From: Gemmatimonadota bacterium
GTDB taxonomy: Bacteria > Gemmatimonadota > Gemmatimonadetes > Palauibacterales > KS3-K002
Direction: 5' to 3'
Assembly: GCA_039586795.1 (NCBI GenBank)
Contig: JBDHJS010000055.1
Location: 1-20,628, forward strand
Length of the DNA: 20,628 bases
The position numbers were made by a program, and so were the translations under genes. Shown here in pieces: positions 4,288-20,628 of the stretch (its first letter is position 1; each line of letters begins with the position of its first letter). The notes under the pieces were generated by a model. The model was not told the origin of the DNA. It searched no databases and saw only the letters and a list, made by a program, of their open reading frames with translations.

Positions 4288-5541
4288 ATGAGCCAGCTGA
4301 CCAGCAGCGTTGACGACCGCTATTTGACCGACGAGCACCGTATGCTCCGGGAGATGGTCCGGGAGTTTGCCGAGAACGAGATCGCTCCCATCGCCGGGGA
4401 AGTCGACCGCGAGGCGCGTTTCCCTTGGGAGAACGTGCCCAAGATGGCGGAGCTGGGTCTGTTCGGTGTGCCGTGGCCGGAGGAGTACGGCGGCGTCGGC
4501 ATGGACGTGCTGGCGGGCTCGATTGTCAGCGAGGAGATGGCCAAGGTCTGTCCGTCCCATGCGATCACCGTGGGCGCGACGATCAGTCTGGCGGCCAGCC
4601 CAATCTATCATTTTGGAAACGAAGAGCAGAAGCAGAAATATCTGACGAAGCTGGCCCAGGGGCAGGTGATGGGCGCCTTCGGCCTGACCGAACCCGAGGC
4701 GGGCTCCGATGCTCAGGGCACGCAGACGCGGGCCGAAGAAAAGAGCGACCACTGGGTGCTGAACGGCACCAAGATCTTCATCACCAACGGCGGCGTCGGC
4801 GAGATCTTCGTCGCCACCGCGGTGACGGGTGAGAAGAACGGGAACAAAGAGATCAGTTCCTTCATCTTGACGAAAGAGACGCGGGACCTGGCAGAGGCTA
4901 AGGCGGTGGGAGTCGGCCACGCCGACGACCTAGAGTACACGCCAGGTTTCACACATGGCAAGAAGGAGGACAAGCTCGGTTGGCGCGCCTCGGACACCAC
5001 AGAGCTCGTCTTCGAAGACGCGATCGTCCCCAAACAAGACATGCTGGGCGAGCGCGGGAAGGGCTTCAAGAACTTCATGCAAACCCTCGACGGAGGCCGC
5101 ATCAGCATGGCGGCGCACGTGCTGGGCATCGCCGAGGGCGCGCTGGAACACACGGTCAAATACACAGGCGAGCGCGTGCAATTCGGCACGCGCATTTGTG
5201 ACTTCCAGGGCATCCGCTTTGATCTCGCCGATTGGTGGACGCGAATCGAGGCGGGCAAACACCTGGTCTATCACGCAGCGCAGCTTCGGCAGGCCGGCAA
5301 GCCGCACAGCAAAGAAGCGGCGATGGCCAAGCTCTACTGCTCGGAGCTCGCGAATTGGGCAACGGTTAAGGCCGTCCAATTCCACGGCGGTTACGGCTAC
5401 ACGACGGACTACCCCGTGGAGCGCTTGATGCGGGACGCAAAGATCGGGGAGATCGGAGAGGGAACCTCCGAGATCCAGAGAATCGTGATCGCGCGTCATC
5501 TCCTTGGCCCGGAGAAGGTACCGGAAGGAGGCGATGCGTGA
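4288..5541 (+). CDS. Acyl-CoA dehydrogenase (short/branched-chain type)
   Basis: 417 aa with motifs [41 protein letters not shown] and [17 protein letters not shown]. Confidence 0.95.
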
Positions 5542-5565
5542 TGCACACAAAGCTAAGAGTAGGAC

Positions 5566-7077
5566 ATGAAAAGGCAGATACTCATCAATGCGGCTCCCCA
5601 CGAGACGCGAGTCGCGATACTGGAGGACAACGTCCTCGTCGAGCTCATGCTCGACCGCCCGGACGCGCAACGGATGGTGGGCGACATCTATCTGGGGCGC
5701 GTCGAAGGTGTGTTGCCCGGCATCCAGGCCGCCTTCGTCAACATAGGCACGGATAAAGCCGGGTTCCTTCACGTCTCGGACCTCGCCGACGAGGATCCGG
5801 AAGCGTCGGAGGAAGAGAAGGGCGTCAAGCGCTACCCGCCCATCCAGACCCTGATCAAGAAGGGCGATGAGATCCTTGTGCAGGTGACCAAGGAGCCCAT
5901 CAGCACCAAGGGTCCCAGAGTCACCGCCCAGGTCTCCCTGCCAGGACGCAACCTGGTCTATATGCCGAAGAGCGAGCACATCGGCGTCTCCCGAAAGATC
6001 GATAGTCGGGAGGAGCGGACACGGCTGCGCCGGCTGATGCGGAATATTCTCAAGCCGGGCGAAGGCGGTGTCATCGTTCGAACGGTGGGCGAGGACGCGA
6101 AGCGCCGGTCGCTGGAGCGCGAGCTCAAGGGACTCGCGAAGACGTGGAAGAAAGTGGAAGCGAAAGTGGTCGAGGCGCAGGCGCCCGCCATGATCCATCA
6201 GGAAGCCCACCTGGCTGCCGGCATCATCCGCGACTTGTTCAGTGAAAAGGTGGATGCGCTGATCGTCGACTCCCGGGAGATCTACATCGAGGTCCGCAAC
6301 TACCTGGAGGCTGTGGATCCTGACCTGATGAAGCGGGTCAGTTTGGACGACGGCGCCGTGTCGCTGTTCGACAAACTCGATATCGAAGAAGAGATCCGCC
6401 GCTCGTTCGACAGCCGCGTCGAGCTCCCGTCCGGTGGCTACGTGGTCATCGAACAGACTGAGGGGCTGGTGGCGATCGACGTGAACACCGGACGCTACAC
6501 CGGCAAGAAGGATCCGGAGAAGACGATCCTACGCACCAACATGGACGCGGCGCGGGAGATCGCACGTCAGCTGCGGCTGCGCGACATCGGCGGCATCATC
6601 GTCGTCGACTTCATCGACATGGAAGACAAGGCGAACCGCGACAAGGTGATGCAAGAGCTGCGCACCCACCTGGGCCGGGACCGGGCGCGTACGAAGGCGT
6701 TCCCGATCTCCGACCTGGGGCTGGTGGAGATGACCCGGCAGCGGGTGCGGCCCAGCGTCTATCACACCGTCACGCAACCGTGTCCCCACTGCGGTGGCTC
6801 CGGGCGGATCGTGAACCCGTCGACCGTGGTCCGCCGGGTCGAGCGGGCGGTGCGGCGCGTGGCAGCGGCCAAGGAAGAGAAGCGGCTGGTGATTCGGCTC
6901 CACCCGGAGGTAGCGCTACATATTCTGGAAGAAGAACCCAATCTGCTGCGGCGGCTCGAGTCGGAGTACCGGGTCGATATCGAGGTGCGGGACGATCCTT
7001 TGATGCAAGCGGATGAGTTCCGAATCTTGGCGGGGCCTGCGGACGTCGATGTGACGTCGCGGTACGCGGTAGCTTAA
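5566..7077 (+). CDS. rng: Rne/Rng family ribonuclease (RNase G-like, no long C-terminal scaffold)
   Basis: 503 aa. S1 domain GDIYLGRVEGVLPGIQAAFVNIG, catalytic IDVNTG and LRDIGGIIVVDFIDM, Zn-link CPHCGGSG. AGGA SD upstream. Confidence 0.93.
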   Translation: MKRQILINAAPHETRVAILEDNVLVELMLDRPDAQRMVGDIYLGRVEGVLPGIQAAFVNIGTDKAGFLHVSDLADEDPEASEEEKGVKRYPPIQTLIKKGDEILVQVTKEPISTKGPRVTAQVSLPGRNLVYMPKSEHIGVSRKIDSREERTRLRRLMRNILKPGEGGVIVRTVGEDAKRRSLERELKGLAKTWKKVEAKVVEAQAPAMIHQEAHLAAGIIRDLFSEKVDALIVDSREIYIEVRNYLEAVDPDLMKRVSLDDGAVSLFDKLDIEEEIRRSFDSRVELPSGGYVVIEQTEGLVAIDVNTGRYTGKKDPEKTILRTNMDAAREIARQLRLRDIGGIIVVDFIDMEDKANRDKVMQELRTHLGRDRARTKAFPISDLGLVEMTRQRVRPSVYHTVTQPCPHCGGSGRIVNPSTVVRRVERAVRRVAAAKEEKRLVIRLHPEVALHILEEEPNLLRRLESEYRVDIEVRDDPLMQADEFRILAGPADVDVTSRYAVA

Positions 7078-7083
7078 AGAGGA

Positions 7084-7106
7084 AAGGCCCGGCTGTGCCG
7101 GGCCTT
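7084..7106 (+). terminator. Palindromic hairpin after rng (terminator or REP-like; stem identical to 8135-8157)
   Basis: AAGGCCCGGC-TGT-GCCGGGCCTT, a 10-bp perfect stem followed by ACATTT. Confidence 0.65.
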
Positions 7107-7113
7107 ACATTTC

Positions 7114-7173
7114 GACAGCCGACAGCGGACAGCCGTCGCTCCACGGCCGAGGACAATTCGGCGATCGAGGTTC
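7114..7173 (+). repeat. Dispersed 60-bp intergenic element, copy 1
   Basis: GACAGCC GACAGCG GACAGCC GTCGCTCCACGGC CGAGGACAATTCGGCGATCGAGGTTC; 54/60 identical to copy 3. Confidence 0.9.
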
Positions 7174-7214
7174 GATTTCCGACGGTCTTCGGGCAGCGGA
7201 CGGTCGTTGTGACG

Positions 7215-7243
7215 TTGACATGTAGGGCACGTTGGGATAGCCT
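7215..7243 (+). promoter_or_regulatory. Sigma-70-type promoter for rplU-rpmA
   Basis: Consensus -35 TTGACA (7215-7220), 17-bp spacer, -10 TAGCCT (7238-7243), ending about 45 nt before the rplU start. Confidence 0.7.
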
Positions 7244-7287
7244 TTAGGGCTCTCATAAACTACGACTTATTGGTGGGTGTTAGGGCT

Positions 7288-7842
7288 GTGACATACGCGA
7301 TTTTCAAGGCCGCAGGCTTCCAATATCGCGCCGAGTTGGGCGACGTTTTGCGCCTCCCATCGTTGGATGCGGAGTCGGGCGACGAGGTGACGTTCGACCA
7401 GGTGCTGCTGGGGTCGAACGAGGGTGAAGTGATGATCGGGCGGCCGACGTTGGATGGCGCTGCCGTGCGTGCGGAAGTGCTACGCCACGGGCGAGCGGAC
7501 AAGATCATCGTCTTCAGGTTCAAGCGCCGCAAGAACGTGCGCCGCAAGACGGGTCATCGACAGGACTTTACCGAAATACGGGTCAGCCAGATCGACTTCG
7601 GTGGGGACAAGGTCGTGAAGCTGGAGCCGGCGAAGGAGCCCGCCAAGAAGAAGGCGGCGCCGAAGAAGGCCGAGGCGGCGACGGTAAAGAAGAAGGCTCC
7701 GGCCAAGAAGCCGACGACCAAGAAGAAGGCGCCGGCCAAGCCGAAGGCCGAGACGAAGAAGAAGACGACGACGGCCAAGGCGAAGCCGAAGACCGAGGCC
7801 AAGGCCAAGACGACGACGAAGTCCAAGAAGAAGAAATCCTAG
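7288..7842 (+). CDS. rplU: 50S ribosomal protein L21 with a Lys/Ala/Thr-rich C-terminal extension
   Basis: (M)[18 protein letters not shown]...[28 protein letters not shown] is the L21 signature. GTG at 7288 best matches the usual N-terminus. It lies directly upstream of rpmA. Confidence 0.95.
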
Positions 7843-7856
7843 CAGGGACGGCCAGC

Positions 7857-8111
7857 ATGGCTCATAAGAAAGCAGGCGGATCGACGCGCAACGGCCGCGA
7901 CAGCAATCCTAAGTTCTTGGGTGTGAAGAAGTACGGCGGTCAGTTCGTGCGCGCGGGTAACATCATCATGCGGCAGCGTGGAACGAAGATTCATCCGGGT
8001 CGCAATGTCGGCAAAGGCGGTGATGATACGTTGTTCGCGTTGGCGGATGGGTATGTTTCGTTTGGGACTATGCGTGGTAGGAAGGTTGTTTCTGTGGTCG
8101 CAGAAGCCTAA
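7857..8111 (+). CDS. rpmA: 50S ribosomal protein L27
   Basis: [24 protein letters not shown]...[24 protein letters not shown], 84 aa. Confidence 0.98.
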
Positions 8112-8134
8112 CGCTGTGGGGTTTCTAATATGAT

Positions 8135-8166
8135 AAGGCCCGGCTTTGCCGGGCCTTTCTTATTTT
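8135..8166 (+). terminator. Intrinsic terminator of rplU-rpmA
   Basis: AAGGCCCGGC-TTT-GCCGGGCCTT followed by TCTTATTTT. Confidence 0.8.
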
Positions 8167-8226
8167 GACAGCGGACAGCCGACGGCCGCGTACCGACGAC
8201 CGAGGACAATTCGGCGATCGACGTTC
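8167..8226 (+). repeat. Dispersed 60-bp intergenic element, copy 2
   Basis: GACAGCG GACAGCC GACGGCC GCGTACCGACGAC CGAGGACAATTCGGCGATCGACGTTC; 50/60 identical to copy 3, with the last 26 nt identical. Confidence 0.9.
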
Positions 8227-8256
8227 TGCGCTCGGCCGCATCCATTCCCTCAACGT

Positions 8257-8287
8257 TCCGTGCTCCGTGCCCAATGTTCATTGTTCG
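8257..8287 (-). repeat. TGAACAT heptamer-family repeat downstream of dinB
   Basis: The minus strand reads CGAACAA TGAACAT TGGGCAC GGAGCAC GGA; 24/31 identical to 9883-9913 on the plus strand. Confidence 0.75.
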
Positions 8288-8290
8288 ATC

Positions 8291-8803
8291 TCAATCGAAA
8301 CCCATCGTGTCGTCGGCCGAGGGGCCATAGGTGCCGGGTAACGGGACGTCAAGCAGTCTTAGAAAGACCGTTAGCTGACCCCGGTGGTGGATGATGTGGT
8401 TCAGGTTCATGCGTATGACGGATAGCCGCGATTGGGTGAAGATGTCTCGGCCGCCGGCCTTTAGGGTCCAGGGTTCGGAGAAGGCATCCTCTTTGGTGGC
8501 CCGGATGGTGTCGACCATCTGGGCCAGGTTGGTGTCGAACAGCTCGACGATCTCGGATACGGAATCGAGCATCGTCGGCACGAACGGAGGGCCGCCGGGT
8601 GGCATGATGTCTAGCTCGTCCAGCTTCAGGGCGTTCACGCCCCATGTGGGCAGCTCGGCCAGGTGCGTCGCCAGGCGACTCAGTGGCATCGACTTCTCGT
8701 GCGGCTTCCAGCTCAGCTGGTCCTCGGGAACACGCTCCAGCAGCCGACGCGTTGCAGCCGCCTCTTGCTCGATCTCCGGAAGTAAGAATTCGGCGATGGA
8801 CAC
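8291..8803 (-). CDS. DinB/YfiT-family protein (four-helix, His-triad metalloprotein; not DNA polymerase IV)
   Basis: 170 aa with WKPHEKSMPLSRLATHLAE and NHIIHHRGQLTVFLRLLDVPLPGTYGPSAD. GTG start with AGGAGG SD. Confidence 0.9.
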   Translation of the reverse strand: MSIAEFLLPEIEQEAAATRRLLERVPEDQLSWKPHEKSMPLSRLATHLAELPTWGVNALKLDELDIMPPGGPPFVPTMLDSVSEIVELFDTNLAQMVDTIRATKEDAFSEPWTLKAGGRDIFTQSRLSVIRMNLNHIIHHRGQLTVFLRLLDVPLPGTYGPSADDTMGFD

Positions 8804-8901
8804 GGGTGCCTCCTACGGTCGGGGTTGTCTGGATTGGGAATCGAACTTATGAAACGATGTTTCGACGATCAAGAAAACGTGTCATCTAACTCGAGGTTCC
8901 A

Positions 8902-9882
8902 ATGAACCGATGCTTCATCGTTGCGCTGGCGCTTCCTCTCACCTTCCTCGCTTGTAGCTCCGAGTCTTCCGAACGGTCGAATACCGAAGGCGAGTCGGAG
9001 GTGAGTAGCCAAACCGAAGCGGCTTCTGCTAGAGCGCAGCTGCCTGCCGGCCGCACTCAGATCGTTCTGCTGGGCACCGGAAACCCGAACGCCGATCCCG
9101 AGCGCTCGGGCCCCGCGCTGGCCATCGTCGTCGACGACGTGCCGTACCTGGTCGACCTCGGTCCCGGTGTCGTGCGGCGCGCCGCGGCAGCGCACCAAGC
9201 GGGCGTCGAGGGGCTGGCCGTCGAGCGCCTGAAGACCGCCTTCATCACTCACTTGCACACCGACCACACGCTGGGCTACGCCGATTTCATGTTCACTCCC
9301 TGGGTGCTGGAGCGAGACTTGCCCGCCGAGGTCTACGGGCCGCCCGGCCTCGCCAACATGACCCGGCACCTGCGCGCCGCCTACGAGCGAGATGTGCGCA
9401 TCCGCATCGACGGGATGGAGCCCGCGAACACCGAAGGCTATAAGGTGAACGTCCACGAGATCGAGCCGGGAGTGATCTTCGAGGACGAGCGCGTGCGCGT
9501 CACCGCCTTCGCGGTCATCCACGGATCATGGGAACACGCCTTCGGCTACCGCTTCGATACGCCCGACCGCAGCATCGTCATCTCGGGGGATGCTCGACCC
9601 GGCCAGAGCGTGATCGAAGCGTGCAACGGCTGTGACGTGCTGATCCACGAAGTGTACGCCCAGGCCGGATTTGACCGGCGCGAACCAGTGTGGCAGCGCT
9701 ATCATTCGCAATTCCACACGTCGGGCCCGGAACTGGGTGAGTTGGCTGTGCAGGCGAGGCCTGGCGTGCTGATTCTGTATCACCAGTTGTTGTGGGGCGC
9801 TACTCCGGAGGAGCTTGTGGGGGAGATTCGGTCGGTGTTTGATGGGCCGGTGGTGTATGGAAATGATTTGGATGTGTTCTGA
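8902..9882 (+). CDS. MBL-fold metallohydrolase (RNase Z/AtsA-like), predicted lipoprotein
   Basis: LLGTGNP, THLHTDH, HGSW, SGD, DVLIHE and ILYH motifs. The N-terminal signal peptide ends in a lipobox-like FLAC, followed by a Ser/Glu-rich linker. Confidence 0.88.
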   Translation: MNRCFIVALALPLTFLACSSESSERSNTEGESEVSSQTEAASARAQLPAGRTQIVLLGTGNPNADPERSGPALAIVVDDVPYLVDLGPGVVRRAAAAHQAGVEGLAVERLKTAFITHLHTDHTLGYADFMFTPWVLERDLPAEVYGPPGLANMTRHLRAAYERDVRIRIDGMEPANTEGYKVNVHEIEPGVIFEDERVRVTAFAVIHGSWEHAFGYRFDTPDRSIVISGDARPGQSVIEACNGCDVLIHEVYAQAGFDRREPVWQRYHSQFHTSGPELGELAVQARPGVLILYHQLLWGATPEELVGEIRSVFDGPVVYGNDLDVF

Positions 9883-9913
9883 TGAACATTGAACACCGCA
9901 CATGGAGCACGGA
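9883..9913 (+). repeat. TGAACAT heptamer-family repeat downstream of the MBL gene
   Basis: TGAACAT TGAACAC CGCACAT GGAGCAC GGA, starting immediately after the stop codon. Confidence 0.75.
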
Positions 9914-10193
9914 GAGCTGAAGGAAGTGCCCCACGCTGAGCCGTGGCCATGGCAGCTACCCCGACGAAGTCGTCGTTCGTCTCGAGGGCCAGGACAACCT
10001 CCGAGGCGCGAGGCGGTCCAGCAAGTCGAGGAGTTGCTCGCCGGCCGCACCTGAATACGACGCTTGTGAGAACCTAAGAAGAAGCACGATATTTCGAACC
10101 GACAGGAACACGAGGCGTCTATTCGTCGCCGGCGCCAAAAGCAATCGTGCCCTGCAGATGTACGAGCGGCTGTACAGAAACAGGCGGTTGTGA

Positions 10194-12629
10194 ATGTCGT
10201 TGCTCCCGCGGGATCTCCGCATCGCCCTCCGCACCCAGCGGAGAGGCCGGGTTGCCCACCTAATCGCGATCTTCTCTCTCGCACTCGGAGTTGCCGGGAA
10301 CGCAGTTGTCTTCAGCATCGTCAACGCGTTCCTATTCAGGCCGCTGCCCTATCCCGAGTCCGACCGGATCGTCGTGCTGGGCGAGCGTGAGACGAGCCAG
10401 CCCGACTTGGCCATCCTCACCCTGACCTCTTCACTAGCCACCTGGGCCGACTATAGAGAGCAAAGCCGTACGCTCTCCGGGTGGGCTGCCTTCAACCCGG
10501 GATTCCTGAGTCTTTCGACCGGCGATGGATCGGTTCCGGTGAGAACAGGGGCCGTCACGCCCAGCTTCTTCGAGACGCTTGGAGCCAATACAGTTCGGGG
10601 TCGGTTGTTCACGGAGGCAGAGGACGTGCCGGGCGGCCCGAAGCTCGCCCTCCTGAGCTGGGAGTACTGGCAAGCCCGGGCGGGGCAGGAGGAGGATCCC
10701 GTCGGCTCCGTGCTCACGTTGCACGGCGAGCCGTACGAAGTGATCGGCGTCCTTGCCGAGGGGTTCGAGTTCATTGTACCGGACATCGATGTGTGGCTGC
10801 CGCTCCAGCGAGACCCACACGCGGCACCGCGACACCGGCGCAATGTCGTTTCGGTCGCGCGCATGGCGGCCAACGTGACGATGGCGGAGGTCGAGGCCGA
10901 AGTGACCGTCATCGCGGAGCGGATCGAGCGCGAGCACCCGGAGACGAGTGGCGACTGGACGGTGGACGCGCTCAACCTGCGCACGGAGATTCCGGAACCC
11001 CAGAGCCGCCTGTATATGGTGATCCTGCAGGCCTCGGTGTTCCTCGTCCTGCTCATCGCCTGCGCGAATATCGCAATACTTCTGCTCGCCTGGAGCCAGG
11101 ACCGTCGGCGCGAGATCGCGCTACGCGCGGCGTTAGGGGCAGGGCCGCTCCGCATCTTTGCTCAGCTTACCCGCGAGAGCCTGGTCATGGCAGCTATCGG
11201 CGGCGGCGCCGGCCTCGCCCTAGCCGCCGGAGGCATCAAGCTGATCGCCGATCGCTTCGCCTCGTCGGTGATGCCGCGCATGTGGATCCCGTCGCTCGAC
11301 ACACGCGTCGTCTTGTTCACTATCGGGATTACCGCTCTCTGCGGCCTCGCCTTCGGGCTCTTCCCGGCGCTCCAGAGCATCAGGGCGAACCAGGTTGACG
11401 CGCTCAAAGAGGGCGGAGGCGTTGGGTTTTCCGGTGGCCGGCGTCGGGTTCGGGTCCGCACAGCCCTCGTCGTCGCCGAGATCGCGCTGTCCCTCGTCGC
11501 TCTGGGAGGCGGGAGCGTCCTGGTCCGGAGCTTCCTCGAAATGAAGAACCGGGACCCCGGCTTCGAGGCGAGCACCCTCCTGACCGTGCGGTTCAGCCTC
11601 CCGAGTTGGAAGTACGAGGATGTCGCAAGCGGAGTCCCCGTGCTGGATCAGATCCGCGAGGGTACCGCAGCCCTGCCGGGTGCTCTGTCGGCGGCGCTAA
11701 CGACCGCCCTGCCGCAGGATCTGTTCCCTTCGACCGACACCTTCCGCGTCGAGGGTCAGCCCATCCAGCAAGCCGCCGGTGCACCGCGGGCCGTATCGGT
11801 CCGCGCGTCACCCGACTATCTGCAGACATTCGACGTGCCACTGCTCCAGGGCCGTTTCTTCGAGGAATCGGATCGCGCCGACGCTTCGCCGGTCGCCGTC
11901 ATCAACCGGACGATGGCTAGGCGTCGTTTCCCGAGACGGAGTCCGATCGGTCATCGGGTTCTCTTTCGGGGGGAGTCCCGTGAGATCGTCGGCGTGGCTG
12001 CCGACGTGCGGCAGATGCTGATGGGGGGACAGAGCGAAGGGTTCGAGGAGGCCGTTTACATCCCTCTGACCCAAGATCCGACGGGCGCCGCCTATCTCGT
12101 GGTTCGGACAATCGGCGACCCGCGAGCTCTGTCCGAGCCCATCCGGAGGGAGATCGCCAAGATCGATCCCGACGTGACGATCAACACGGTCGAGACGATG
12201 GAGGAATACGCAAGCAAATACGTCGTCGGACTCGACATCTTTAACGCGATCTTCGGCGGGTTCAGCATCTTCGCCCTGTTGCTGGCGTCACTGGGTACCT
12301 ACGGCGTCGTCTCTTACTCCGTCTCGCAGCGGAATCAAGAAATCGGTGTCCGCCTGGCCCTGGGGGGCCGGGCAGGCGACATCGTGGCAATGATCGCCAT
12401 GCACGGCGTCAGGTTGTCGATCGTCGGTCTGCTGGTTGGCACCTTCCTGTTGCTCCCCGTGGTGGCACTGATCGGAAGCGTGCTGGAGGACCTGGCACTG
12501 GCACCGGTCGAACCACTGATCGTGGTGGCGGTGGCCGCCCTATTGTTCGGCGTAACGGTAACCGCCAGCATCATTCCGGCGAGCTGGGCAGCCAGAGTGG
12601 ATCCGATGAGGGTGCTCAAGGCGGAATGA
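10194..12629 (+). CDS. ADOP-type duplicated MacB/FtsX ABC permease
   Basis: 811 aa with two MacB-periplasmic + FtsX units: LALGVAGNAVVFSIVNAFLFRPLPYPESDRIV, LLIACANIA...RRREIALRAALGA, YGVVSYSVSQRNQEIGVRLALG, and a C-terminal AARVDPMRVLKAE. Confidence 0.92.
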   Translation: MSLLPRDLRIALRTQRRGRVAHLIAIFSLALGVAGNAVVFSIVNAFLFRPLPYPESDRIVVLGERETSQPDLAILTLTSSLATWADYREQSRTLSGWAAFNPGFLSLSTGDGSVPVRTGAVTPSFFETLGANTVRGRLFTEAEDVPGGPKLALLSWEYWQARAGQEEDPVGSVLTLHGEPYEVIGVLAEGFEFIVPDIDVWLPLQRDPHAAPRHRRNVVSVARMAANVTMAEVEAEVTVIAERIEREHPETSGDWTVDALNLRTEIPEPQSRLYMVILQASVFLVLLIACANIAILLLAWSQDRRREIALRAALGAGPLRIFAQLTRESLVMAAIGGGAGLALAAGGIKLIADRFASSVMPRMWIPSLDTRVVLFTIGITALCGLAFGLFPALQSIRANQVDALKEGGGVGFSGGRRRVRVRTALVVAEIALSLVALGGGSVLVRSFLEMKNRDPGFEASTLLTVRFSLPSWKYEDVASGVPVLDQIREGTAALPGALSAALTTALPQDLFPSTDTFRVEGQPIQQAAGAPRAVSVRASPDYLQTFDVPLLQGRFFEESDRADASPVAVINRTMARRRFPRRSPIGHRVLFRGESREIVGVAADVRQMLMGGQSEGFEEAVYIPLTQDPTGAAYLVVRTIGDPRALSEPIRREIAKIDPDVTINTVETMEEYASKYVVGLDIFNAIFGGFSIFALLLASLGTYGVVSYSVSQRNQEIGVRLALGGRAGDIVAMIAMHGVRLSIVGLLVGTFLLLPVVALIGSVLEDLALAPVEPLIVVAVAALLFGVTVTASIIPASWAARVDPMRVLKAE

Positions 12630-12636
12630 CCCATGA

Positions 12637-12706
12637 GCAGTAAGCGGTAGACGGTAGCTGATAACTTCGAATTCCATAACTCCACGAATCCACGAGTCCA
12701 CGAATC
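12637..12706 (+). repeat. Adjacent degenerate heptamer and octamer tandem repeats
   Basis: GCAGTAA GCGGTAG ACGGTAG CTGATAA (12637-12664), then TCCATAAC TCCACGAA TCCACGAG TCCACGAA TC (12673-12706). Confidence 0.65.
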
Positions 12707-12879
12707 TGATTCCCACTAACAACATCCCAACGGACGGGCACACGTTCACTGTCGGATCGAGAACACGGTGGACTCCCCGGGGTGTGCCGGAAGGGCTCAG
12801 CAGCTTCCCGACGGCCTTCTGAAATCGGGCGCCTTCACCGCATTGCTGTGCACACGCGCACGTCCTTGAGCGGGCGGCC

Positions 12880-12895
12880 CGGCACCGAAATTGCG
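12880..12895 (+). promoter_or_regulatory. Sigma-54 (-24/-12) promoter upstream of the asnB-like gene
   Basis: CGGCACCGAAATTGCG gives GG-N10-GC, with GGCAC and TTGC matching the TGGCAC-N5-TTGC consensus. It ends about 87 nt before the ATG. Confidence 0.7.
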
Positions 12896-12981
12896 CCCCG
12901 TTGAGATCGCCTCCCGCTCCCGCGAAGGGACCGAGCGCCAGAGGTCGGGGAGAACTCGGAAATAGAAGGGGAGCCACGTAC

Positions 12982-14883
12982 ATGTGCGGAATCGTTGGGG
13001 TATTGAACCTCACCAATCCAGCACCGGTGGATGCGGAGCTGCTACGGGTCGCCAATGCGGCGCTGCACCATAGAGGTCCTGACGGTTCGGGCGAATTCGT
13101 GGAAGCGGACGTCGGGATGGCGATGCGACGCCTGAGCATCATCGACGTCGCTCAGGGCCATCAGCCGATGGCAAACGAGGACGGCAGCGTGCGCGTCGTC
13201 TACAACGGCGAGATCTACAACCACGAAGATTTGCGCCGTGACCTCGAAGCTCGAGGACACAGGTTCCACACCCATGCAGACACCGAGGTGCTCGTGCATG
13301 GCTACGAGGAATGGGGACGCGACGGGCTCCTAGAGAGGCTGCGCGGGATGTTCGCCTTCGCCATCTGGGACGATAAACGCCGTGCGGTGTTTCTCGCCCG
13401 CGATCGCATGGGCATCAAACCTCTGTACACTGCGGAGTACGATGGGCGGTTCTATTTCGCATCCGAAATTCGCAGCATTCTGCTACTCTCGGAAATGCCG
13501 CGGCGCCCAAACTTGAACGCGCTTGGCCTCTATATGCGCGTCGGTTTCGTGACGGCTCCACACACGATTCTCGAGGGTTTAACGAAACTGCCGCCCGCGC
13601 ACTACCTGTGGATCGAGGATGGAAAGGTGTCCAGCCACGAGTATTGGACGCTCTCCTACGAACCCACCAATCGCGACGCGGAGACGGCCATCGTCGAGGG
13701 CTTCCGCGAGCGCCTGGAGGACTCGATACGGACACATCTGATGAGCGAGGTGCCGCTCGGGGCACTACTGTCGGGCGGTGTGGACTCGACCACGACCGTG
13801 GCCTTCATGGGCAGGATGCTCAGCGAGCCGGTCAATACGGTCACCGTCGGTTTCGCAGGGGCGAGCTTAGACGAGACGGAATTGGCGAAGGCGTCGGCCC
13901 GAGAGCTGGGTACCGAGCACCATACGGTCGTCTTCACGCACGACACGATGGCCGACTACCCGTCCGTGATACGCGCTCAAGAGGAGCCATTTGGGCGTCC
14001 CACAAATGCTGCGCTGTACTACTTGTTCAAGGCCTGTCGTGAACACGGCCTGACGGTGATGATGACGGGGGAGGGGGCGGATGAACTGCTCGGTGGCTAC
14101 GGCTGGCACCGCAAGAATCAGAGCGGTCGGCTGCAATCAGCGATCTCGCGCCTGCCGCTTGGGCTGCGTCGGGCGTTTGCCGGCAGTGGCACGCTTCGCG
14201 CAATAGGCCAATCTGGACGCGCGCTGCTGCGCTCCACTCGTGGTGAAGAGACACGCCTCCACCGACGGTTTGCTGAACTCATCCGCATCGGTGATTGCGA
14301 TGTCGGCGTAGAGCTGCTGTCGTCGGACGTGCGCTCCGCAGTCGGCGCCGATGCCGGACAGTCGATCATCGATGGTTGGGAGGATTGGCTGGCCTGCGTT
14401 CGCGGTCAGCCGGAATTCGGCCAACTCCTTTGGCTTCAGTCGCGAACACGCATGCCGGACTACATCATTCAAGGGCTCGACAAACACAGCATGGCACATT
14501 CTGTCGAGGCTCGCCCGCCGCTTCTCGATCATCTGCTTTGGGAGTACTGCGCCGCCCTGCCGAGCGACATCAAGCTGCGCGACGGGACGGAGAAGTATCT
14601 TTTGCGACAGGCCGGAATGCACATCGTGCCGGAAGCAGCTCGCACCCGGCGCAAGAAGCCGCTGCGTGTTCCTTACGAGCGCTGGATCGCAAAACAGCGC
14701 TTGCCCGATTGGGCGGAATGCGCGCTGGATACCACTCAGCTTCGCCGCACCGGGCTGTTCGATCCAAGAGCGGTGAGCCAGCTCCGGCAACGTGTGCAGG
14801 CGGGTGAACGGCGGAACGTTGCGTTGCTTTCTGCGGTGCTGAATCTACAGACGTGGGTCAGCGTTTTTATTGATGCGCCGTAG
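12982..14883 (+). CDS. asnB: Asparagine synthase (glutamine-hydrolysing) family amidotransferase
   Basis: The start is MCGIVG (Ntn Cys2) at 12982, with a GGGGAG SD. Motifs HRGPD, RRLSIID, YNGEIYN, ARDRMGIKPL, LLSGGVDS and TGEGADELLGGY. 633 aa. The substrate may not be free aspartate. Confidence 0.9.
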   Translation: MCGIVGVLNLTNPAPVDAELLRVANAALHHRGPDGSGEFVEADVGMAMRRLSIIDVAQGHQPMANEDGSVRVVYNGEIYNHEDLRRDLEARGHRFHTHADTEVLVHGYEEWGRDGLLERLRGMFAFAIWDDKRRAVFLARDRMGIKPLYTAEYDGRFYFASEIRSILLLSEMPRRPNLNALGLYMRVGFVTAPHTILEGLTKLPPAHYLWIEDGKVSSHEYWTLSYEPTNRDAETAIVEGFRERLEDSIRTHLMSEVPLGALLSGGVDSTTTVAFMGRMLSEPVNTVTVGFAGASLDETELAKASARELGTEHHTVVFTHDTMADYPSVIRAQEEPFGRPTNAALYYLFKACREHGLTVMMTGEGADELLGGYGWHRKNQSGRLQSAISRLPLGLRRAFAGSGTLRAIGQSGRALLRSTRGEETRLHRRFAELIRIGDCDVGVELLSSDVRSAVGADAGQSIIDGWEDWLACVRGQPEFGQLLWLQSRTRMPDYIIQGLDKHSMAHSVEARPPLLDHLLWEYCAALPSDIKLRDGTEKYLLRQAGMHIVPEAARTRRKKPLRVPYERWIAKQRLPDWAECALDTTQLRRTGLFDPRAVSQLRQRVQAGERRNVALLSAVLNLQTWVSVFIDAP

Positions 14884-14925
14884 TGAGTCCTGATCGCTGG
14901 CGGGCCGCCGTGGTAGACCCTCAAA

Positions 14926-15041
14926 TGAACATTGAACATTGTTCACGGAACATGTGAACATTGATGGCTTTGCCCACGCTGGGTCCTGTGCAGTAGTTTC
15001 GTCCCATGTTCAGCTGGTCCATGCCCAATGTTCAATGTTCA
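14926..15041. repeat. 116-bp element with perfect 16-bp terminal inverted repeats (MITE/REP-like, TGAACAT family)
   Basis: TGAACATTGAACATTG (14926-14941) and CAATGTTCAATGTTCA (15026-15041). Extra units at 14955-14961 and 15006-15012. Confidence 0.75.
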
Positions 15042-15058
15042 CCTCGCCAGGAGCGACC

Positions 15059-16774
15059 ATGTCATCCCGTCTAGACCTCGACCGCCGCCGCTTCCTAGCC
15101 TACTTCTCCACCCTAGGCCTCGGCTCATCCCTCTTCCCGGGCGTTCTCTGGGCAAGGCTCCAGGAGGAGGAGGAACCGCGCATAACGGCCGACCTGCTCG
15201 ACGAGGCCGAACAGATCGCCGGCCTGGAATTCACCGAGGAAGAACGCGAGTTGATGCTCCGCGGCCTCAACAGCCGCCTCCGCGCCTTCGAGCAGTTACG
15301 CGAGGTCGAGCTGCCCAACAGCATCTCTCCCGCGCTCTACTTCGATCCGGTGCCGCCCGGACACACCGCCAGCGCGAACGATGGTGTGTCGACGCGCAGC
15401 AGCGTCACCATCGACAGCTTTCCTTCCAACCTGGAAGACGTCGCGTTCTGGCCCGTCACTCACCTCGCGAAGCTGATCGAGACACGCCAGATCACGTCCG
15501 TGCAACTCACCGAGATGTACATGGACCGTCTCGGTCGCTACGGGCCGAAGCTCGAGTGCACCATCAACCCGACGTACGAGCTGGCGATGGAACAGGCGCG
15601 GCGCGCCGACGAGGAGATCGCCGCCGGCCATTACCGCGGGCCGCTGCACGGCATCCCGTGGGGCGCCAAGGACCTGCTGTCGGTGAAGGGCTATCCCACC
15701 ACGTGGGGCGCCATGCCGTTCAAGGACCAGATGATCGAGGAGAACGCCACCGTGGTGCAGCGTCTGGAGGAGGCGGGCGCGGTGCTCATCGCCAAGCTAA
15801 CGCTTGGCGCGTTGGCGATGGGCGATGTCTGGTACGGTGGAAAGACGCGAAATCCGTGGGACTACGAGCAGGGATCGAGCGGCTCGTCTGCCGGATCGGC
15901 AGCGGCGACGGCCGCCGGACTGATCGGCTTCGGAATCGGAACGGAGACACTAGGCTCCATCGTTTCGCCGTGCACCCGGTGCGGAACGACCGGGCTACGC
16001 CCCACCTTCGGGCGCGTGAGTCGGTCGGGCGCCATGGCGCTCTCCTGGAGCATGGACAAGATCGGGCCGATCTGTCGCAGCGTTGAAGACTGCGCCCTAG
16101 TGTTCGACGCGATCTACGGTCCGGACGGACAAGATCTATCGGTGGTCGATCAGCCGTTCGCCTGGAACGCCGACATGGATATTCATTCGCTACGCATCGG
16201 GTACGTCGTCAGCGCATTCGAGGAAGAGCGGGAGCGCGAGCCCGAGTGGCAGCAGTTCGATTTGAATTCGCTGCACGTGATGCGGGCGCTGGGCGTCGAT
16301 CTGATCCCCATCGAGCTTCCCGAGGAGCTGCCGATCGGCGCCATGCGCATCATCCTCAGCGCCGAAGCCGCCGCGGCGTTCGATGACCTCACGCGGAACG
16401 GCCGCGACGATCTACTCAAGAGGCAGGACCGCGGTGCCTGGCCGAACTCCTTCAGGACATCACGGTTCATACCGGCCGTCGAGTATATCCAGGCCAACCG
16501 CGTCCGAACGCTGGCCCTCGAGAAGATGGCGGAGCTCATGTCGGATATCGACGTCTACGTCGTCCCATCTTACGGTGGGAACAACCTGACGTTGACCAAC
16601 CTGACGGGTCATCCCTGCGTGGTGTTGCCGAACGGCTTCAGAGAGGATGGGACGCCGACCAGCCTCAGCTTCATGGGCAGGCTGTATGGCGAGGCGGAAA
16701 CGCTGGCCGTCGCCCGCGCCTACCAGGAAGCAACGCATTTCTACAAACGGCACCCGACGCTACTGATCGACTAA
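15059..16774 (+). CDS. Amidase-signature family enzyme with a Tat-like N-terminus
   Basis: Start MSSRLDLDRRRFLAY at 15059 with AGGAG SD. GPLHGIPWGAKDL, GSSGSSAGS and GTETLGSI supply the Lys-cisSer-Ser triad. 571 aa. Confidence 0.92.
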   Translation: MSSRLDLDRRRFLAYFSTLGLGSSLFPGVLWARLQEEEEPRITADLLDEAEQIAGLEFTEEERELMLRGLNSRLRAFEQLREVELPNSISPALYFDPVPPGHTASANDGVSTRSSVTIDSFPSNLEDVAFWPVTHLAKLIETRQITSVQLTEMYMDRLGRYGPKLECTINPTYELAMEQARRADEEIAAGHYRGPLHGIPWGAKDLLSVKGYPTTWGAMPFKDQMIEENATVVQRLEEAGAVLIAKLTLGALAMGDVWYGGKTRNPWDYEQGSSGSSAGSAAATAAGLIGFGIGTETLGSIVSPCTRCGTTGLRPTFGRVSRSGAMALSWSMDKIGPICRSVEDCALVFDAIYGPDGQDLSVVDQPFAWNADMDIHSLRIGYVVSAFEEEREREPEWQQFDLNSLHVMRALGVDLIPIELPEELPIGAMRIILSAEAAAAFDDLTRNGRDDLLKRQDRGAWPNSFRTSRFIPAVEYIQANRVRTLALEKMAELMSDIDVYVVPSYGGNNLTLTNLTGHPCVVLPNGFREDGTPTSLSFMGRLYGEAETLAVARAYQEATHFYKRHPTLLID

Positions 16775-16780
16775 TGAGTA

Positions 16781-17902
16781 CTAATCGTCCATGAAGAAAC
16801 GCTCGAATTCGTCCCAGCGTGCTCGGGCGTCCTCGTACCCTAGCTCGATCACTTGGCTCAGGTAGGGCTCACCGAAGATCAGATAGCTCAGTAGATCGCC
16901 GGCCTGAACGCGCTCTACTCCTGTGCCGCGCAGTAGGAAGCGTAGCGACCGGGGCAGCAGCTTCCTGTGTCCGGCGGCCATCACCCCTAGGTCGCGGGAC
17001 GGACGCACGATGTGCAGCTTGAGTGGACGAAGCCCTCTTGGATTCGGGATTCCGTAGGGCAGCGCGTCCAGAACGTCGTTCAACCTGCGTAGTCGTTCGG
17101 CATCCTGCTCCAGCGTGTCGAGAAAGATCGTGTTGAACAGCGTACCGGCAATTTGTGCCGGCGATGGGTAATACGTAGAAGCACGCGCCTTTACCTCTTC
17201 CAGCGTCGCCGCATAGCGTGTCGAAATGGCGAGCAGTCGTTTGGCACCCAGATGAACGGCGGGTGCCAGAGGGGCGGCCTGTCGGATGCTACCGTCACCG
17301 TAGTACTCACCGTCCACCTTGATCGCGGGAAAGACCAGAGGGAGCGCGCTTGATGCCATCACATGGTCGACAGTGATTTTTGTGCCCTTTCCGGTACGAC
17401 GGGCGCGTTCCCAGGTTGGAATCCCCTCGCTGCCGTGAACGAACGTGACAGTCTGTCCGGTGGAATAACGCGTGGTCGTGAGCGCGAGGGCCGTCAGCCG
17501 GTCTCGGCGCACGTTCGTCTCTATCCCGTCGACGTCGAGGCAACCGTCTAGAAACTCGCGCAACGGTCGCGTGTCCAAAAGCGCTCCGGACTTCTCCGTT
17601 CGATCGCGCGGGGTTATGCGGCCCATCGTCCACAATCCGCGCACGATGGTTTTGCCGATCGCACCGATGTTTGTATAGAAGACTTGGTCGACGGTCAGAT
17701 TTCGCCACGCCGCTGCCAGTTCATCGAGCACCGGCGGTCCGCTGTCTTGATGGCCGGCTAGGAACGTGGCATTGATGGCGCCGGCCGAGACGCCGGTGAT
17801 GATCGGGAACTGGACGTCAGGTGCCCGTTCCGCGATACAGGTCAGTACACCGACTTGGTAGGCAGCACGCGCGCCTCCACCAGACAAAACGAGGCCGTTC
17901 AT
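16781..17902 (-). CDS. Patatin-like phospholipase
   Basis: LSGGGARAAYQVG oxyanion loop, GVSAG nucleophile elbow, ASSALP and DGS motif. 373 aa. Confidence 0.92.
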   Translation of the reverse strand: MNGLVLSGGGARAAYQVGVLTCIAERAPDVQFPIITGVSAGAINATFLAGHQDSGPPVLDELAAAWRNLTVDQVFYTNIGAIGKTIVRGLWTMGRITPRDRTEKSGALLDTRPLREFLDGCLDVDGIETNVRRDRLTALALTTTRYSTGQTVTFVHGSEGIPTWERARRTGKGTKITVDHVMASSALPLVFPAIKVDGEYYGDGSIRQAAPLAPAVHLGAKRLLAISTRYAATLEEVKARASTYYPSPAQIAGTLFNTIFLDTLEQDAERLRRLNDVLDALPYGIPNPRGLRPLKLHIVRPSRDLGVMAAGHRKLLPRSLRFLLRGTGVERVQAGDLLSYLIFGEPYLSQVIELGYEDARARWDEFERFFMDD

Positions 17903-18175
17903 AACATCAGCGCATCCACTTCTTGTTCAGCGACATCGCGAGACCGACGCCGGGCACGACAGCAGGAACGTCCGCGCCGCGGCGGCAGTTCCTCCGACCC
18001 TGGGCAATGGGTATGGACGGGCACGAGGGACAGGACTCGAAGGTACCACACGGGCTGGCGTGCGACCAGCCGGGTCAGCCGAGCCGTCGTAGTGGAGCGT
18101 CGACAGGGCCGGAGGTGTCTCGTATCTTCTTCAAGGAACACGGGGCAACCTCAATTCCGACAGGGAGATGCGACC

Positions 18176-18658
18176 GTGAATCTCTATCTGCTTCGCCACG
18201 GCGAAGCGCAGGCGAAGCAGCAGGATCCGGAGCGGCCGTTGACCGCAGCGGGCGCTGAGATGGCCCGTCGCGTCGCCCGCTTTCTGGGCGGTCTCGATCT
18301 CCGCCTCGCCGGGGTCCAGCACAGCACCAAGCTCCGTGCTCGCCAGACCGCGGAGATCATCGCCGAGGGCGCCGGTCTCTCCGCCCCCGTCACTCAGGTC
18401 CCGAACCTGGAACCCCTCGATGACGTCGAGGGGCTGGCGGACGCGCTGACTTCCGGAGCGACGAGCGACCTGATGCTGGTCGGTCATCTGCCGCACCTGA
18501 ATCGCCTGGCTTCCCGGCTTGTGGCGGGTGACGCGGGCCTCGAGCTATTCGCGTTTCCGGAATGTGGGGTGCTTTGCCTGCGACGAGGCGAAGGAAACGC
18601 GGGTGCCGGACCGGTGTGGCGCGTGCAGTGGATGATAGCACCGGAGTCGCTACTCTAG
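18176..18658 (+). CDS. sixA: Phosphohistidine phosphatase SixA
   Basis: GTG start at 18176 (GGGAG SD): (M)NLYLLRHGEA...RPLT...HSTKLRARQTA...LMLVGHLPHL. 160 aa. Confidence 0.88.
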   Translation: MNLYLLRHGEAQAKQQDPERPLTAAGAEMARRVARFLGGLDLRLAGVQHSTKLRARQTAEIIAEGAGLSAPVTQVPNLEPLDDVEGLADALTSGATSDLMLVGHLPHLNRLASRLVAGDAGLELFAFPECGVLCLRRGEGNAGAGPVWRVQWMIAPESLL

Positions 18659-18677
18659 AACATTTAGATCGGGGTGG

Positions 18678-19511
18678 GTGAACGAAGTCATAGCAATGGA
18701 ACGTGAACTGGAATTCGAGCCACTGAAAATCCTTCACAACGCTCGCGACGACGAACTGCTGCGTGCCGGCCGTCGCACGATCTGGGGTGACCTCACACCG
18801 GACGAAGACGGGCTGATACGCGCCGACCACGACCAGGTACCGTATACCTATGGCCTATTCATCCAATCGAAGGATGGCAGGGCGATAGACTCCTTGGAAG
18901 GAGGCGTCGGGCGCATGTCCGGCGTGCCGTCCGATCGGTTTGGTCAGCTCGAATTGCGCGCCACCGTCGATGCCTTCCTAGTCGGTGGAGCCACGCTGCG
19001 CGGCGATCGCACGGTGGGCGTGCCCGGCCAGAGCGAGCTCGTGCATCGCCGGCGGAAGGAGAAAGGGAACGACGCGCCGCTCAACGTCTTCTTCTCGAAC
19101 TCGGGTGATATACCAGGGGATCTGCCGGTATTCTTCATGGACGAGGTGAAGACCGCGATCTTCATCGGCGAGAAGGCGGCGGATAGGGCGAAGGAACTGC
19201 GAATTCTCACCAATGATGTGACGGTGGTGAGCGCCGAGTCGCCGCTGCAGGATATGTGGAACGTGCTTTATCGGCGTGGTATCATGACGATTGGGTTTGA
19301 AGGCGGGCCGCATCTCATGGGCCTGGCGCTGCGCGACCGACTCGTCCACGAATTGTTGCTAACGCACTCGCCGCTGTTGTTGGGAGGATTGGGGCCGAGT
19401 TTTTCGGCGATACGGACGCCGCTGGAGGAGACCCGGGTGGAGCCGGTGTTTTTGGGGCTCGATGAGGGGAGTGGGCTCTTGTTTGAGCGTAGTAGGGTGG
19501 TGTACGGGTAG
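18678..19511 (+). CDS. RibD C-terminal / dihydrofolate-reductase-family oxidoreductase
   Basis: FIQSKDGRA, LRATVDAFLVGGATLRGD, FEGGPHL and LVHELLLTHSPLLLGG motifs, with no deaminase domain. An alternative ATG start lies at 18696. Confidence 0.8.
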   Translation: MNEVIAMERELEFEPLKILHNARDDELLRAGRRTIWGDLTPDEDGLIRADHDQVPYTYGLFIQSKDGRAIDSLEGGVGRMSGVPSDRFGQLELRATVDAFLVGGATLRGDRTVGVPGQSELVHRRRKEKGNDAPLNVFFSNSGDIPGDLPVFFMDEVKTAIFIGEKAADRAKELRILTNDVTVVSAESPLQDMWNVLYRRGIMTIGFEGGPHLMGLALRDRLVHELLLTHSPLLLGGLGPSFSAIRTPLEETRVEPVFLGLDEGSGLLFERSRVVYG

Positions 19512-19573
19512 GGCCTTTCTCGGCCGTTTCGGCGGTCGACGTTCGACTCTCTTCTTACGACGTTCTTGATCTG

Positions 19574-19633
19574 GACAGCCAACAGCGGACAGCCGCCGCT
19601 CGACGTTCGAGGACAATTCGGCGATCGACGTTC
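19574..19633 (+). repeat. Dispersed 60-bp intergenic element, copy 3
   Basis: GACAGCC AACAGCG GACAGCC GCCGCTCGACGTT CGAGGACAATTCGGCGATCGACGTTC. Confidence 0.9.
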
Positions 19634-19713
19634 TACGGTCGACTATCGTATGGCGACGTTCCCGGGTTCCGGTTTGAGGCAGAACCTCGGCGCGTAGGGA
19701 GATACTGCAGATC

Positions 19714-20628
19714 ATGGGTCTGACGGGGCGACTCGGCGAGCTTGCTCGCCTTTTTTTGAAGTTGGGCTGTGTGGCGTTTGGTGGGCCCGCGGCGCATATC
19801 GCTATGTACGAGGACGAGGTGGTGCGACGGCGCGGGTGGATGACGGCGGAGCACTTTCTCGACCTGGTTGGTGCGACCAACCTGATTCCTGGGCCAAACT
19901 CCACCGAGATGACGATGCACGTAGGGTACGAACGTGCGGGGTGGGCGGGTCTCGTCGTAGCTGGTGTCAGCTTCATTCTGCCCGCGGCCCTCATCACCGG
20001 TCTGCTGGCCTGGCTCTATGTGCAATTCGGGGCGTTGCCGGCGGCGGCGCCATTCCTCGACGGCATCAAACCGGCGGTGATCGCGATCATCCTCGGCGCG
20101 GTCTGGCGGCTTGGCCGGTCGGCTGTGAAGAACGTTCGCGTCGTGGTGATCGGCGTTGGTGTGTTCGTCGCTGTCCTTGCCGGCCTCAACGAGGTTCTCG
20201 CTCTTTTGCTTGGTGGGGTCCTGGGCATGTTGTGGCTGAGCCTCGGCGGTCGAATTGGGAACGGGGCCGCGCTTCAGGTGCTGCCGCTGGGCGCTCCGTC
20301 GCTCAAAGCGGCTGGACTGGGAACGTTGGGTGCCGGTATCGGCGCTGCGGTGGCGGCTGTGCCGTTGTGGAAGCTGGGGCTCTTCTTCCTCAAGGTGGGG
20401 GCTATCCTCTATGGCAGCGGCTACGTATTAATCGCCTTTCTGCATGGCGATCTCGTGGCCGGGTACGGGTGGCTCACGGATCAACAACTACTCGACGCTG
20501 TCGCCATCGGTCAGTTCACGCCGGGCCCGGTGCTGTCGACGGCGACGTTCATCGGGTTCGTCATCGCCGGTATGCCGGGCGCCATCGTCGCGACCGTGGC
20601 GATCTTCCTGCCATCCTTCTTTTTCGTT
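19714..20628 (+). CDS. chrA: Chromate efflux transporter (CHR family, two-domain); truncated by the window end
   Basis: Manual translation (not in the ORF track): MGLTGRLGELARLFLKLGCVAFGGPAAHIAMYEDEVVRRRGWMTAEHFLDLVGATNLIPGPNSTEM, then a second domain FLKVGAILYGSGYVL...DAVAIGQFTPGPVLSTATFIG. AGGGAG lies upstream. Confidence 0.93.
   Translation, partial: MGLTGRLGELARLFLKLGCVAFGGPAAHIAMYEDEVVRRRGWMTAEHFLDLVGATNLIPGPNSTEMTMHVGYERAGWAGLVVAGVSFILPAALITGLLAWLYVQFGALPAAAPFLDGIKPAVIAIILGAVWRLGRSAVKNVRVVVIGVGVFVAVLAGLNEVLALLLGGVLGMLWLSLGGRIGNGAALQVLPLGAPSLKAAGLGTLGAGIGAAVAAVPLWKLGLFFLKVGAILYGSGYVLIAFLHGDLVAGYGWLTDQQLLDAVAIGQFTPGPVLSTATFIGFVIAGMPGAIVATVAIFLPSFFFV

Follow-up and report, generated by a model that had tools for sequence, protein, structure and literature searches.

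We report that three repeat copies in a 20,628-nt stretch of a Gemmatimonadota bacterium (GenBank assembly GCA_039586795.1, contig JBDHJS010000055.1, here contig C101; "the window" below means this whole stretch) belong to a genome-wide family of heptamer-built arms, and that the sole gene found between paired arms of this family, on contig C53 of the same genome (4.68 Mb, 97.8% complete, 107 contigs), encodes a four-helix-bundle protein. It appears fairly probable that the window copies are gene-less arms of this C53-type cassette, the protein of which, as a pentamer, would bind the arm as a single strand and promote its spread in trans. This account builds on direct observation of the size and layout of the family, the match between cassette and arms, the co-occurrence of arms and gene among relatives, empty orthologous sites and selection on the gene.

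A profile search with a model built from 30 seed arms detected 90 arms in the genome, all of which are intergenic (0/90 inside genes, as called with a codon model built in this analysis). Sixty of these form 30 convergent inverted pairs and there are no divergent pairs; the span of a pair is nearly fixed (177-195 nt in 21/30) and the inverted pairs fold into long hairpins. Moreover, pairs are over-represented between convergent genes (10/29 vs 172/1615) and under-represented between divergent genes. The gene-less pairs are alike in length and several have inner-loop sequence in common, which suggests that they were copied from one another. A first-pass annotation made from the window alone had expected an abundant family from the three copies, which have a 21-mer in common, and this was borne out: the 21-mer occurs exactly in 11 places, in 21 with at most one mismatch and in 27 with at most two. 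Among viral contigs the arm pattern gave 0 matches.

One of the arm pairs brackets the PF05635/TIGR02436 gene on C53, in a cassette located between two protein genes; the first-pass annotation had proposed looking for a four-helix-bundle gene flanked by copies. The gene product, P0001, has 129 amino acids and belongs to the S23p/23S_rRNA_IVP family, and the closest named homologues of the gene are Gemmatimonadota records. In total the genome holds four PF05635 genes, the other three being bracketed by their own, different inverted arms. The C53 gene is under purifying selection in 6/6 comparisons (dN 0.14-0.24 vs dS 1.4-3.0, where dS is near saturation). The structure model of P0001 (pLDDT 92) matches 2RLD and 2GSC first, followed by Avd (TM 0.71 to 4DWL), and from the homologues 2RLD and 2GSC P0001 is predicted to be a pentamer. 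Published work presents S23p as a homopentamer (PMC4990558), and in Avd each of the five protomers makes contact with RNA (bioRxiv 10.1101/2023.10.23.563531). Among 84 homologues the invariant charged or His residues of P0001 are R17, R47, E58, E63, D67, H70, K77, E78 and R80, which from their conservation are a candidate binding or catalytic surface.

A RAYT/IS200-type mobiliser, which had also been envisaged at the outset, was not found: PF01797 (Y1_Tnp) gave 0 matches in the 97.8% complete genome, while 6/14 control genomes were positive. Among other catalytic mobilisers there were likewise no matches to PDDEXK_3 or to PF00078 (RVT_1), with the DDE families not searched, and the 0 PF00078 matches in the genome mean that no reverse transcriptase was detected next to the Avd-like gene.

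In the window, the copies and the features next to them are as follows (positions are those of the window):

7084..7106, T-tract on the minus strand: GC-rich hairpin directly 5' of copy 1; 22 relatives have no such hairpin between rng and rplU
7109..7186, plus strand: copy 1, single arm, with ATTT at 7109-7112, five heptamers at 7113-7147, an 11-nt linker (type A) at 7148-7158 and four looser heptamers at 7159-7186
8135..8157, plus strand: terminator-like hairpin of rplU-rpmA, with a similar hairpin in 4/5 relatives examined; the 5' end of copy 2 gives part of the T-tract
8162..8225, plus strand: copy 2, single arm, with five heptamers at 8166-8200, linker at 8201-8211 and two inner heptamers that are intact up to 8225, after which the arm is decayed
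8245..8286, minus strand: arm of a second family (GAACATT type), in sense behind a convergent DinB-family gene; it faces copy 2 and is not its partner
19210..19511, plus strand: G+T halo at the 3' end of the RibD_C gene, with fourfold-site G+T of 0.74 vs 0.46 in the gene body
19517..19566, plus strand: degenerate in-strand heptamers 5' of copy 3, resembling those 5' of the arms of the gene-bearing cassette
19569..19646, plus strand: copy 3, single arm, with five heptamers at 19573-19607, linker at 19608-19618 and four looser heptamers at 19619-19646

The location of the three copies on the plus strand was confirmed (exact 21-mer at 7148, 8201 and 19608; 0 matches in 100 shuffles), as was their position 3' of the RNase E/G (rng), L27 (rpmA) and RibD_C genes. 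The copies align with each other free of gaps, and all three are single arms, without a partner, and carry no gene. Copy 1 sits between the rng stop codon and a TTGACA hexamer that is conserved 5' of rplU, the start of copy 2 falls at the U-tract of the rpmA terminator, and copy 3 is placed between the RibD_C and chromate-transporter genes. Copy 2 is closest to the 5' arm of the gene-bearing C53 cassette, from which it differs at 4 positions in 64 nt (69 other in-register arms were compared); it is not an assembly artefact, since contigs from two DNA runs span it without a difference (X1 8004-8483, X4 8071-8423). The hairpin 5' of copy 1 is closely similar to the rpmA terminator 5' of copy 2, the former being missing in relatives, and near-identical upstream hairpins are also common to other single arms; hence, hairpin and arm may be copied together.

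The arm differs from the element as first delineated. In register, it consists of ATTT, five heptamers, an 11-nt phase-shifting linker and then about four looser heptamers, i.e. two modules around a variable linker, an architecture that is newly described here. The 60-nt element proposed earlier is thus too short, as conservation begins at ATTT, four bases 5' of the first heptamer, and extends over approximately 75-80 nt. The three heptamers assigned to each copy are part of five outer ones, and the presumed 13-nt variable segment corresponds to heptamers 4 and 5, of which unit 4 has two alternative forms. The 21-mer is exact in the three window copies but not invariant in the family, being present in only 11/77 strong arms of the genome; it represents one of several linker types together with the next units, and its linker type was found in 30/68 classified arms. 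In the relatives G002 and G010 the linkers are entirely different, have other lengths and sometimes contain an inserted stem-loop.

A phase break follows the sixth anchor triplet in 74/77 arms here, in 33/35 arms in G002 and in 32/37 in G010, where for the latter two the arms come from 20 fetched stretches each, i.e. a subset of the copies, and where one and the same break may be parsed as 5 or as 6 units. We also measured the longest period-7 run around 105 homologous genes of several phyla; the commonest length is 37-39 nt, i.e. five heptamers plus three bases (65/166 runs passing the score), with 39 of these 65 runs originating from one related group. Outside this large group (n=110), 26 runs are 37-39 nt, 16 are 30-32 nt, three are 44-46 nt and 22 are longer. 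The presence of a five-unit module beside the gene for a putative pentamer suggests that one subunit would contact each heptamer. Such an arrangement would be comparable to that of TRAP.

Next to the gene-bearing cassettes we noted a direct repeat with an 11-nt period (GWTGA-N6-GWTGA) located 5' of the 5' arm in 27/30 cassettes, compared to 3/30 downstream flanks; the sites are at L105 (G000:C53, near 35593, minus strand) and upstream of the homologous cassettes L106-L133. Among 75 arms of the family it is found at the gene-bearing copy only, and it is present at all four PF05635 genes of the genome, three of which were in the training set. The repeat may be a promoter or an operator; we consider a box C/D-like K-loop less likely. 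A search for a wider regulon with the upstream TGA motif returned the training sites themselves as top intergenic matches. An L7Ae-family gene adjoins an ORF that by eye is nusA-like.

Comparison with relatives indicates that arms and gene occur together. Exact matches to a 16-nt arm pattern number 4-69 in 7/41 genomes and 0-1 in the other 34. All seven arm-rich genomes have a homologue of the C53 gene at ≥66% identity (five intact, two broken), and among the 34 arm-poor genomes no homologue exceeds 56% identity. Moreover, homologous genes in many phyla have inverted heptamer arms. The two broken genes each lie beside an arm (G023:C107 near 22957-23226 and G005:C146 near 22606-23026), and their genomes have 9 and 11 arm matches; three genomes with an intact gene have 55-69 and the other two 15 and 4.

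The sites themselves turn over. At the rng-rplU locus the spacer is short and empty in 22/22 informative relatives (30 loci were examined: one from this genome, six partial, one rearranged and 22 informative). G010 has a complete arm pair of its own at rng-rplU. At the site 3' of rpmA, a pair of this family is present in G002, arms that by eye belong to other families are present in G010, G015 and G009, and no arm was seen in G001. The arm next to RibD_C is missing in four orthologues. G001, a genome of the same genus (86% complete), does not have the family. The gene-bearing cassette was found at its locus in 2/13 genomes, with close homologues in other contexts.

Isolated single arms are non-randomly placed: 19/24 lie in sense behind a gene (expected fraction 0.41, p = 1.5e-4), and a GC hairpin is situated directly 5' of 10/24, compared to 5/51 paired arms and 47/1462 controls. 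Their outer five units and linker are as conserved as those of pairs (58.6 vs 58.1 bits; 22 and 46 arms), with p = 0.69 for the outer module and p = 0.83 for the linker; the inner tail alone scores lower in singles (p = 0.035). The DNA around singles also has a strand-specific composition. At fourfold sites, G+T on the arm strand is 0.63 within 400 nt vs 0.52 far away, on both sides of the arm, and it is higher near the arm in 20/24 singles, against a difference of 0.006 in 1083 control spacers. The halo is also seen where the gene downstream lies on the opposite strand (+0.08, 11/13). Terminators as its cause were ruled out, as the difference is -0.001 in 107 control spacers that contain a GC hairpin. 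At the RibD_C gene there is no such rise in the four orthologues without the arm, a sequence comparison that supports a local, lineage-specific effect of the arm. Enrichment of G+T is the usual mark of a strand that is left single-stranded, and the halo is therefore a hint that the arm strand is exposed in this form.

On the reading that we prefer, the pentamer encoded by the C53 gene would bind the arm as a single strand with one subunit per heptamer, and the bound module would comprise 38 nt, i.e. five heptamers and the sixth anchor triplet. Each arm would offer two modules with the variable linker looped out, and the bound pentamer would promote the spread of gene-less copies in trans. Insertion at gene 3' ends would proceed via host recombination or repair, which is proposed because no catalytic mobiliser was found. 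The pentamer, its binding to the 38-nt module, the single-stranded state of the arm and insertion by the host machinery all seem likely. In a broader form that we put forward tentatively, as a possibility only, the family would be one of a class of transposase-free mobile DNA in which a pentamer of the S23p/Avd fold wraps five-heptamer modules of single-stranded DNA or RNA in a TRAP-like manner, thereby drives the copying of the cassette itself as well as of scores of gene-less hairpins and single arms, which would be placed at gene 3' ends, and leaves a strand-specific mutation halo.

Several results weigh against this account. Neither binding nor movement was observed directly, and no catalytic activity is known from proteins of this family. 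No target-site duplication was detected (the longest word common to both flanks is 4.5 vs 4.2 ± 0.2 nt in shuffled pairings of flanks; 22 pairs with approximate ends), and no reads joining across a skipped copy were present among the joints listed from four DNA runs (5000-20628, 85% likeness) and four RNA-library runs (5500-9000). Identity within pairs is not above that of random arms (0.752 vs 0.763, 19 pairs), and no within-pair co-evolution was found. The split between 7 and 34 genomes is overstated, as related genomes do not count as independent cases; many of the genomes are also incomplete. Runs of far more than five units are found as well, at some cassettes of other phyla (22/110 above 46 nt). 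With respect to the halo, a rise at the rng 3' end is likewise seen in some genomes whose site is empty (-0.13 to +0.26 vs +0.20 here), and the effect is weak in two other arm families (+0.03, 10/15; +0.04, 6/10). Finally, among the four PF05635 matches of the genome no cognate gene was found for the GAACATT family described below (24 arms), and two of the four cassettes had no dispersed copies under the seeds used.

The same data can be read in other ways. The arms could be domesticated pentamer sites, maintained by the host at the 3' ends of genes, that spread by ordinary recombination or gene conversion and not selfishly; they could be imagined to protect mRNA ends, to control read-through or to organise the chromosome. 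The sense placement of singles and the GC hairpins 5' of them fit this view, as do the selection on the gene and the full conservation of the outer units and linker of singles, which in this respect are unlike REP singlets (PMC3116915). However, the sites are not kept between relatives, the family is missing from G001 of the same genus, and one site is occupied by different arm families in different genomes. We regard both the domesticated state and the host roles listed as unlikely. Another option is an intervening sequence (IVS) acting at the level of RNA, where the two arms of a pair would fold into a long stem, to be excised from transcripts by RNase III, and singles would be leftovers. 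The long hairpins formed by pairs agree with this, and the RNase III-excised Coxiella IVS shares the gene family, the inverted ends and the heptamers (PMC4990558). Within-pair differences of the wobble type are also polarised (chi-square 61.6, 19 df; p = 0.02 vs random pairing), but the wobble-favoured strand is antisense at this cassette (7:0) and sense at an orthologous one (10:2), and the arms of a pair do not co-evolve. Singles, moreover, are not decayed in their outer module, and all three window copies lack a partner. We regard this option as quite improbable. The RNA-library contigs over copies 1 and 2, at 2-3x depth, are uninformative with respect to transcription or strand.

The annotation had itself put forward two explanations, a REP/MITE-like element and a structured 3'-UTR RNA. 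The former is upheld in so far as the intergenic family behaves like a REPIN or MITE, but it lacks both a RAYT and a target-site duplication. It could be rescued if an HUH or DDE transposase were missing from the assembly and the four-helix-bundle gene were mere cargo. Strictly intergenic inverted doublets of near-fixed length and an assembly in 107 contigs leave some room for this; on the other side stand the missing PF01797 match and target-site duplication (DDE families were not searched), the arm families that track the four-helix-bundle gene across genomes and the inverted heptamer arms at homologues in many phyla, and we consider it very improbable. As to the RNA motif, the core hairpin is present in the minimum-energy fold, but its stability is like that of shuffles (z = -0.54, +0.07 and -0.48 for the three copies), and some pairing is expected anyway because the heptamer contains self-complementary words. 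In a set of 70 in-register arms, most apical pairs either do not change or change on one side, with one of the pairs intact in just 50/70. Two-sided changes were seen in six arms at one lower-stem pair, which is broken in 18, and none of the 25 column pairs with highest mutual information belongs to the stem. The local hairpin was therefore rejected as a conserved structure. A CsrA/Rsm-type site is defined by a conserved GGA in a hairpin loop, and GGA is present in only about 30/70 arms, while copy 2 starts at the terminator U-tract. The linkers are wholly different in G002 and G010, and no Rfam match was obtained in the window at the gathering threshold (4227 models). Despite the sense bias of arms behind genes, which would fit an RNA motif, the GGA-loop RNA is largely refuted and is to us barely credible.

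We compared the system with those described in the literature. The S23p-type IVS of 23S rRNA in Coxiella burnetii has the same protein family, with the gene in the loop between inverted repeats, and tandem heptamers 5' of the gene (PMC4990558); the heptamer is GACAGAT in Coxiella, and in our family the unit contains GACAGC. The features of such an IVS are present in our family as a PF05635/TIGR02436 ORF between repeats on C53 and as long-stem inverted repeats (30 pairs), whereas the arms lie between called protein genes and not in a 23S rRNA helix. Further differences are the approximately 80-nt two-module arms, with about 90 gene-less arms dispersed genome-wide, and the ORF, which is decaying in Coxiella (PMC4990558) and under purifying selection here. 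REPIN-RAYT systems (PMC3116915) resemble it in having a single-copy gene flanked by the repeat, many intergenic inverted hairpin doublets and separate repeat families for separate genes within one genome; unlike these, our family has no Y1 tyrosine transposase but a four-helix-bundle partner without known catalytic activity, its unit is a heptamer array, and the outer module of singles is not more decayed than that of doublets. Avd of diversity-generating retroelements is alike in fold, pentamer and five-protomer RNA contact, but binds a stem-loop and not a heptamer array (bioRxiv 10.1101/2023.10.23.563531), and here there is no reverse transcriptase in the genome and no template/variable repeat.

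Intergenic multicopy arrays of 7-nt units are also known from Geobacter metallireducens, with five tandem units at 15/16 sites of one class (PMC2700814), and from Beggiatoaceae, as TAACTGA repeats that are mostly located before start codons (PMC4679880), unlike the arms described here. In the text covered neither is linked to any gene, and 'four helix', 'S23' and 'intervening sequence' are absent from the main text of PMC4679880. We found no literature that joins PF05635 genes to dispersed heptamer hairpins (supplements and most subscription papers were outside the coverage). To what is published we add the two-module arm, the conserved sense singles behind terminators, the local G+T halo and the motif found only at gene-bearing cassettes.

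Other heptamer families coexist with this one. The GAACATT type comprises 24 intergenic arms and seven convergent pairs in the genome, and in the window, apart from the minus-strand arm at 8245-8286, it is represented at 9884-9925 (plus strand) and by a pair at 14926-15041; relatives have four-helix-bundle cassettes with arms of this type (L111, L121, L128 and L129). A third family, that of cassette L003 (G000:C23:67313-70591), amounts to 41 intergenic arms in the genome, with 12 convergent pairs, and its units are less regular. Ribosomal protein L21 in the window (7620-7842) has a long Lys/Ala-rich C-terminal extension of approximately 80 residues.

Open questions in the field concern the movement of rRNA IVSs, the function of the S23p protein and the over-representation of 7-nt repeats in many bacterial genomes (PMC4990558, PMC4679880). 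The present family offers a concrete pair of protein and substrate, i.e. P0001 with its 129 residues and a module of 38 nt, which are predicted to combine five to five, and the paralogous proteins and non-cognate arms of the same genome are built-in controls, such that the binding step can be tested directly in vitro. If binding were true, and likewise a spread that depends on the gene, the family would constitute a REPIN-like system operating with no known transposase, and if the transposase-free reading were true in its broader form, ribosomal IVSs and unexplained bacterial heptamer repeats would be products of the same system.

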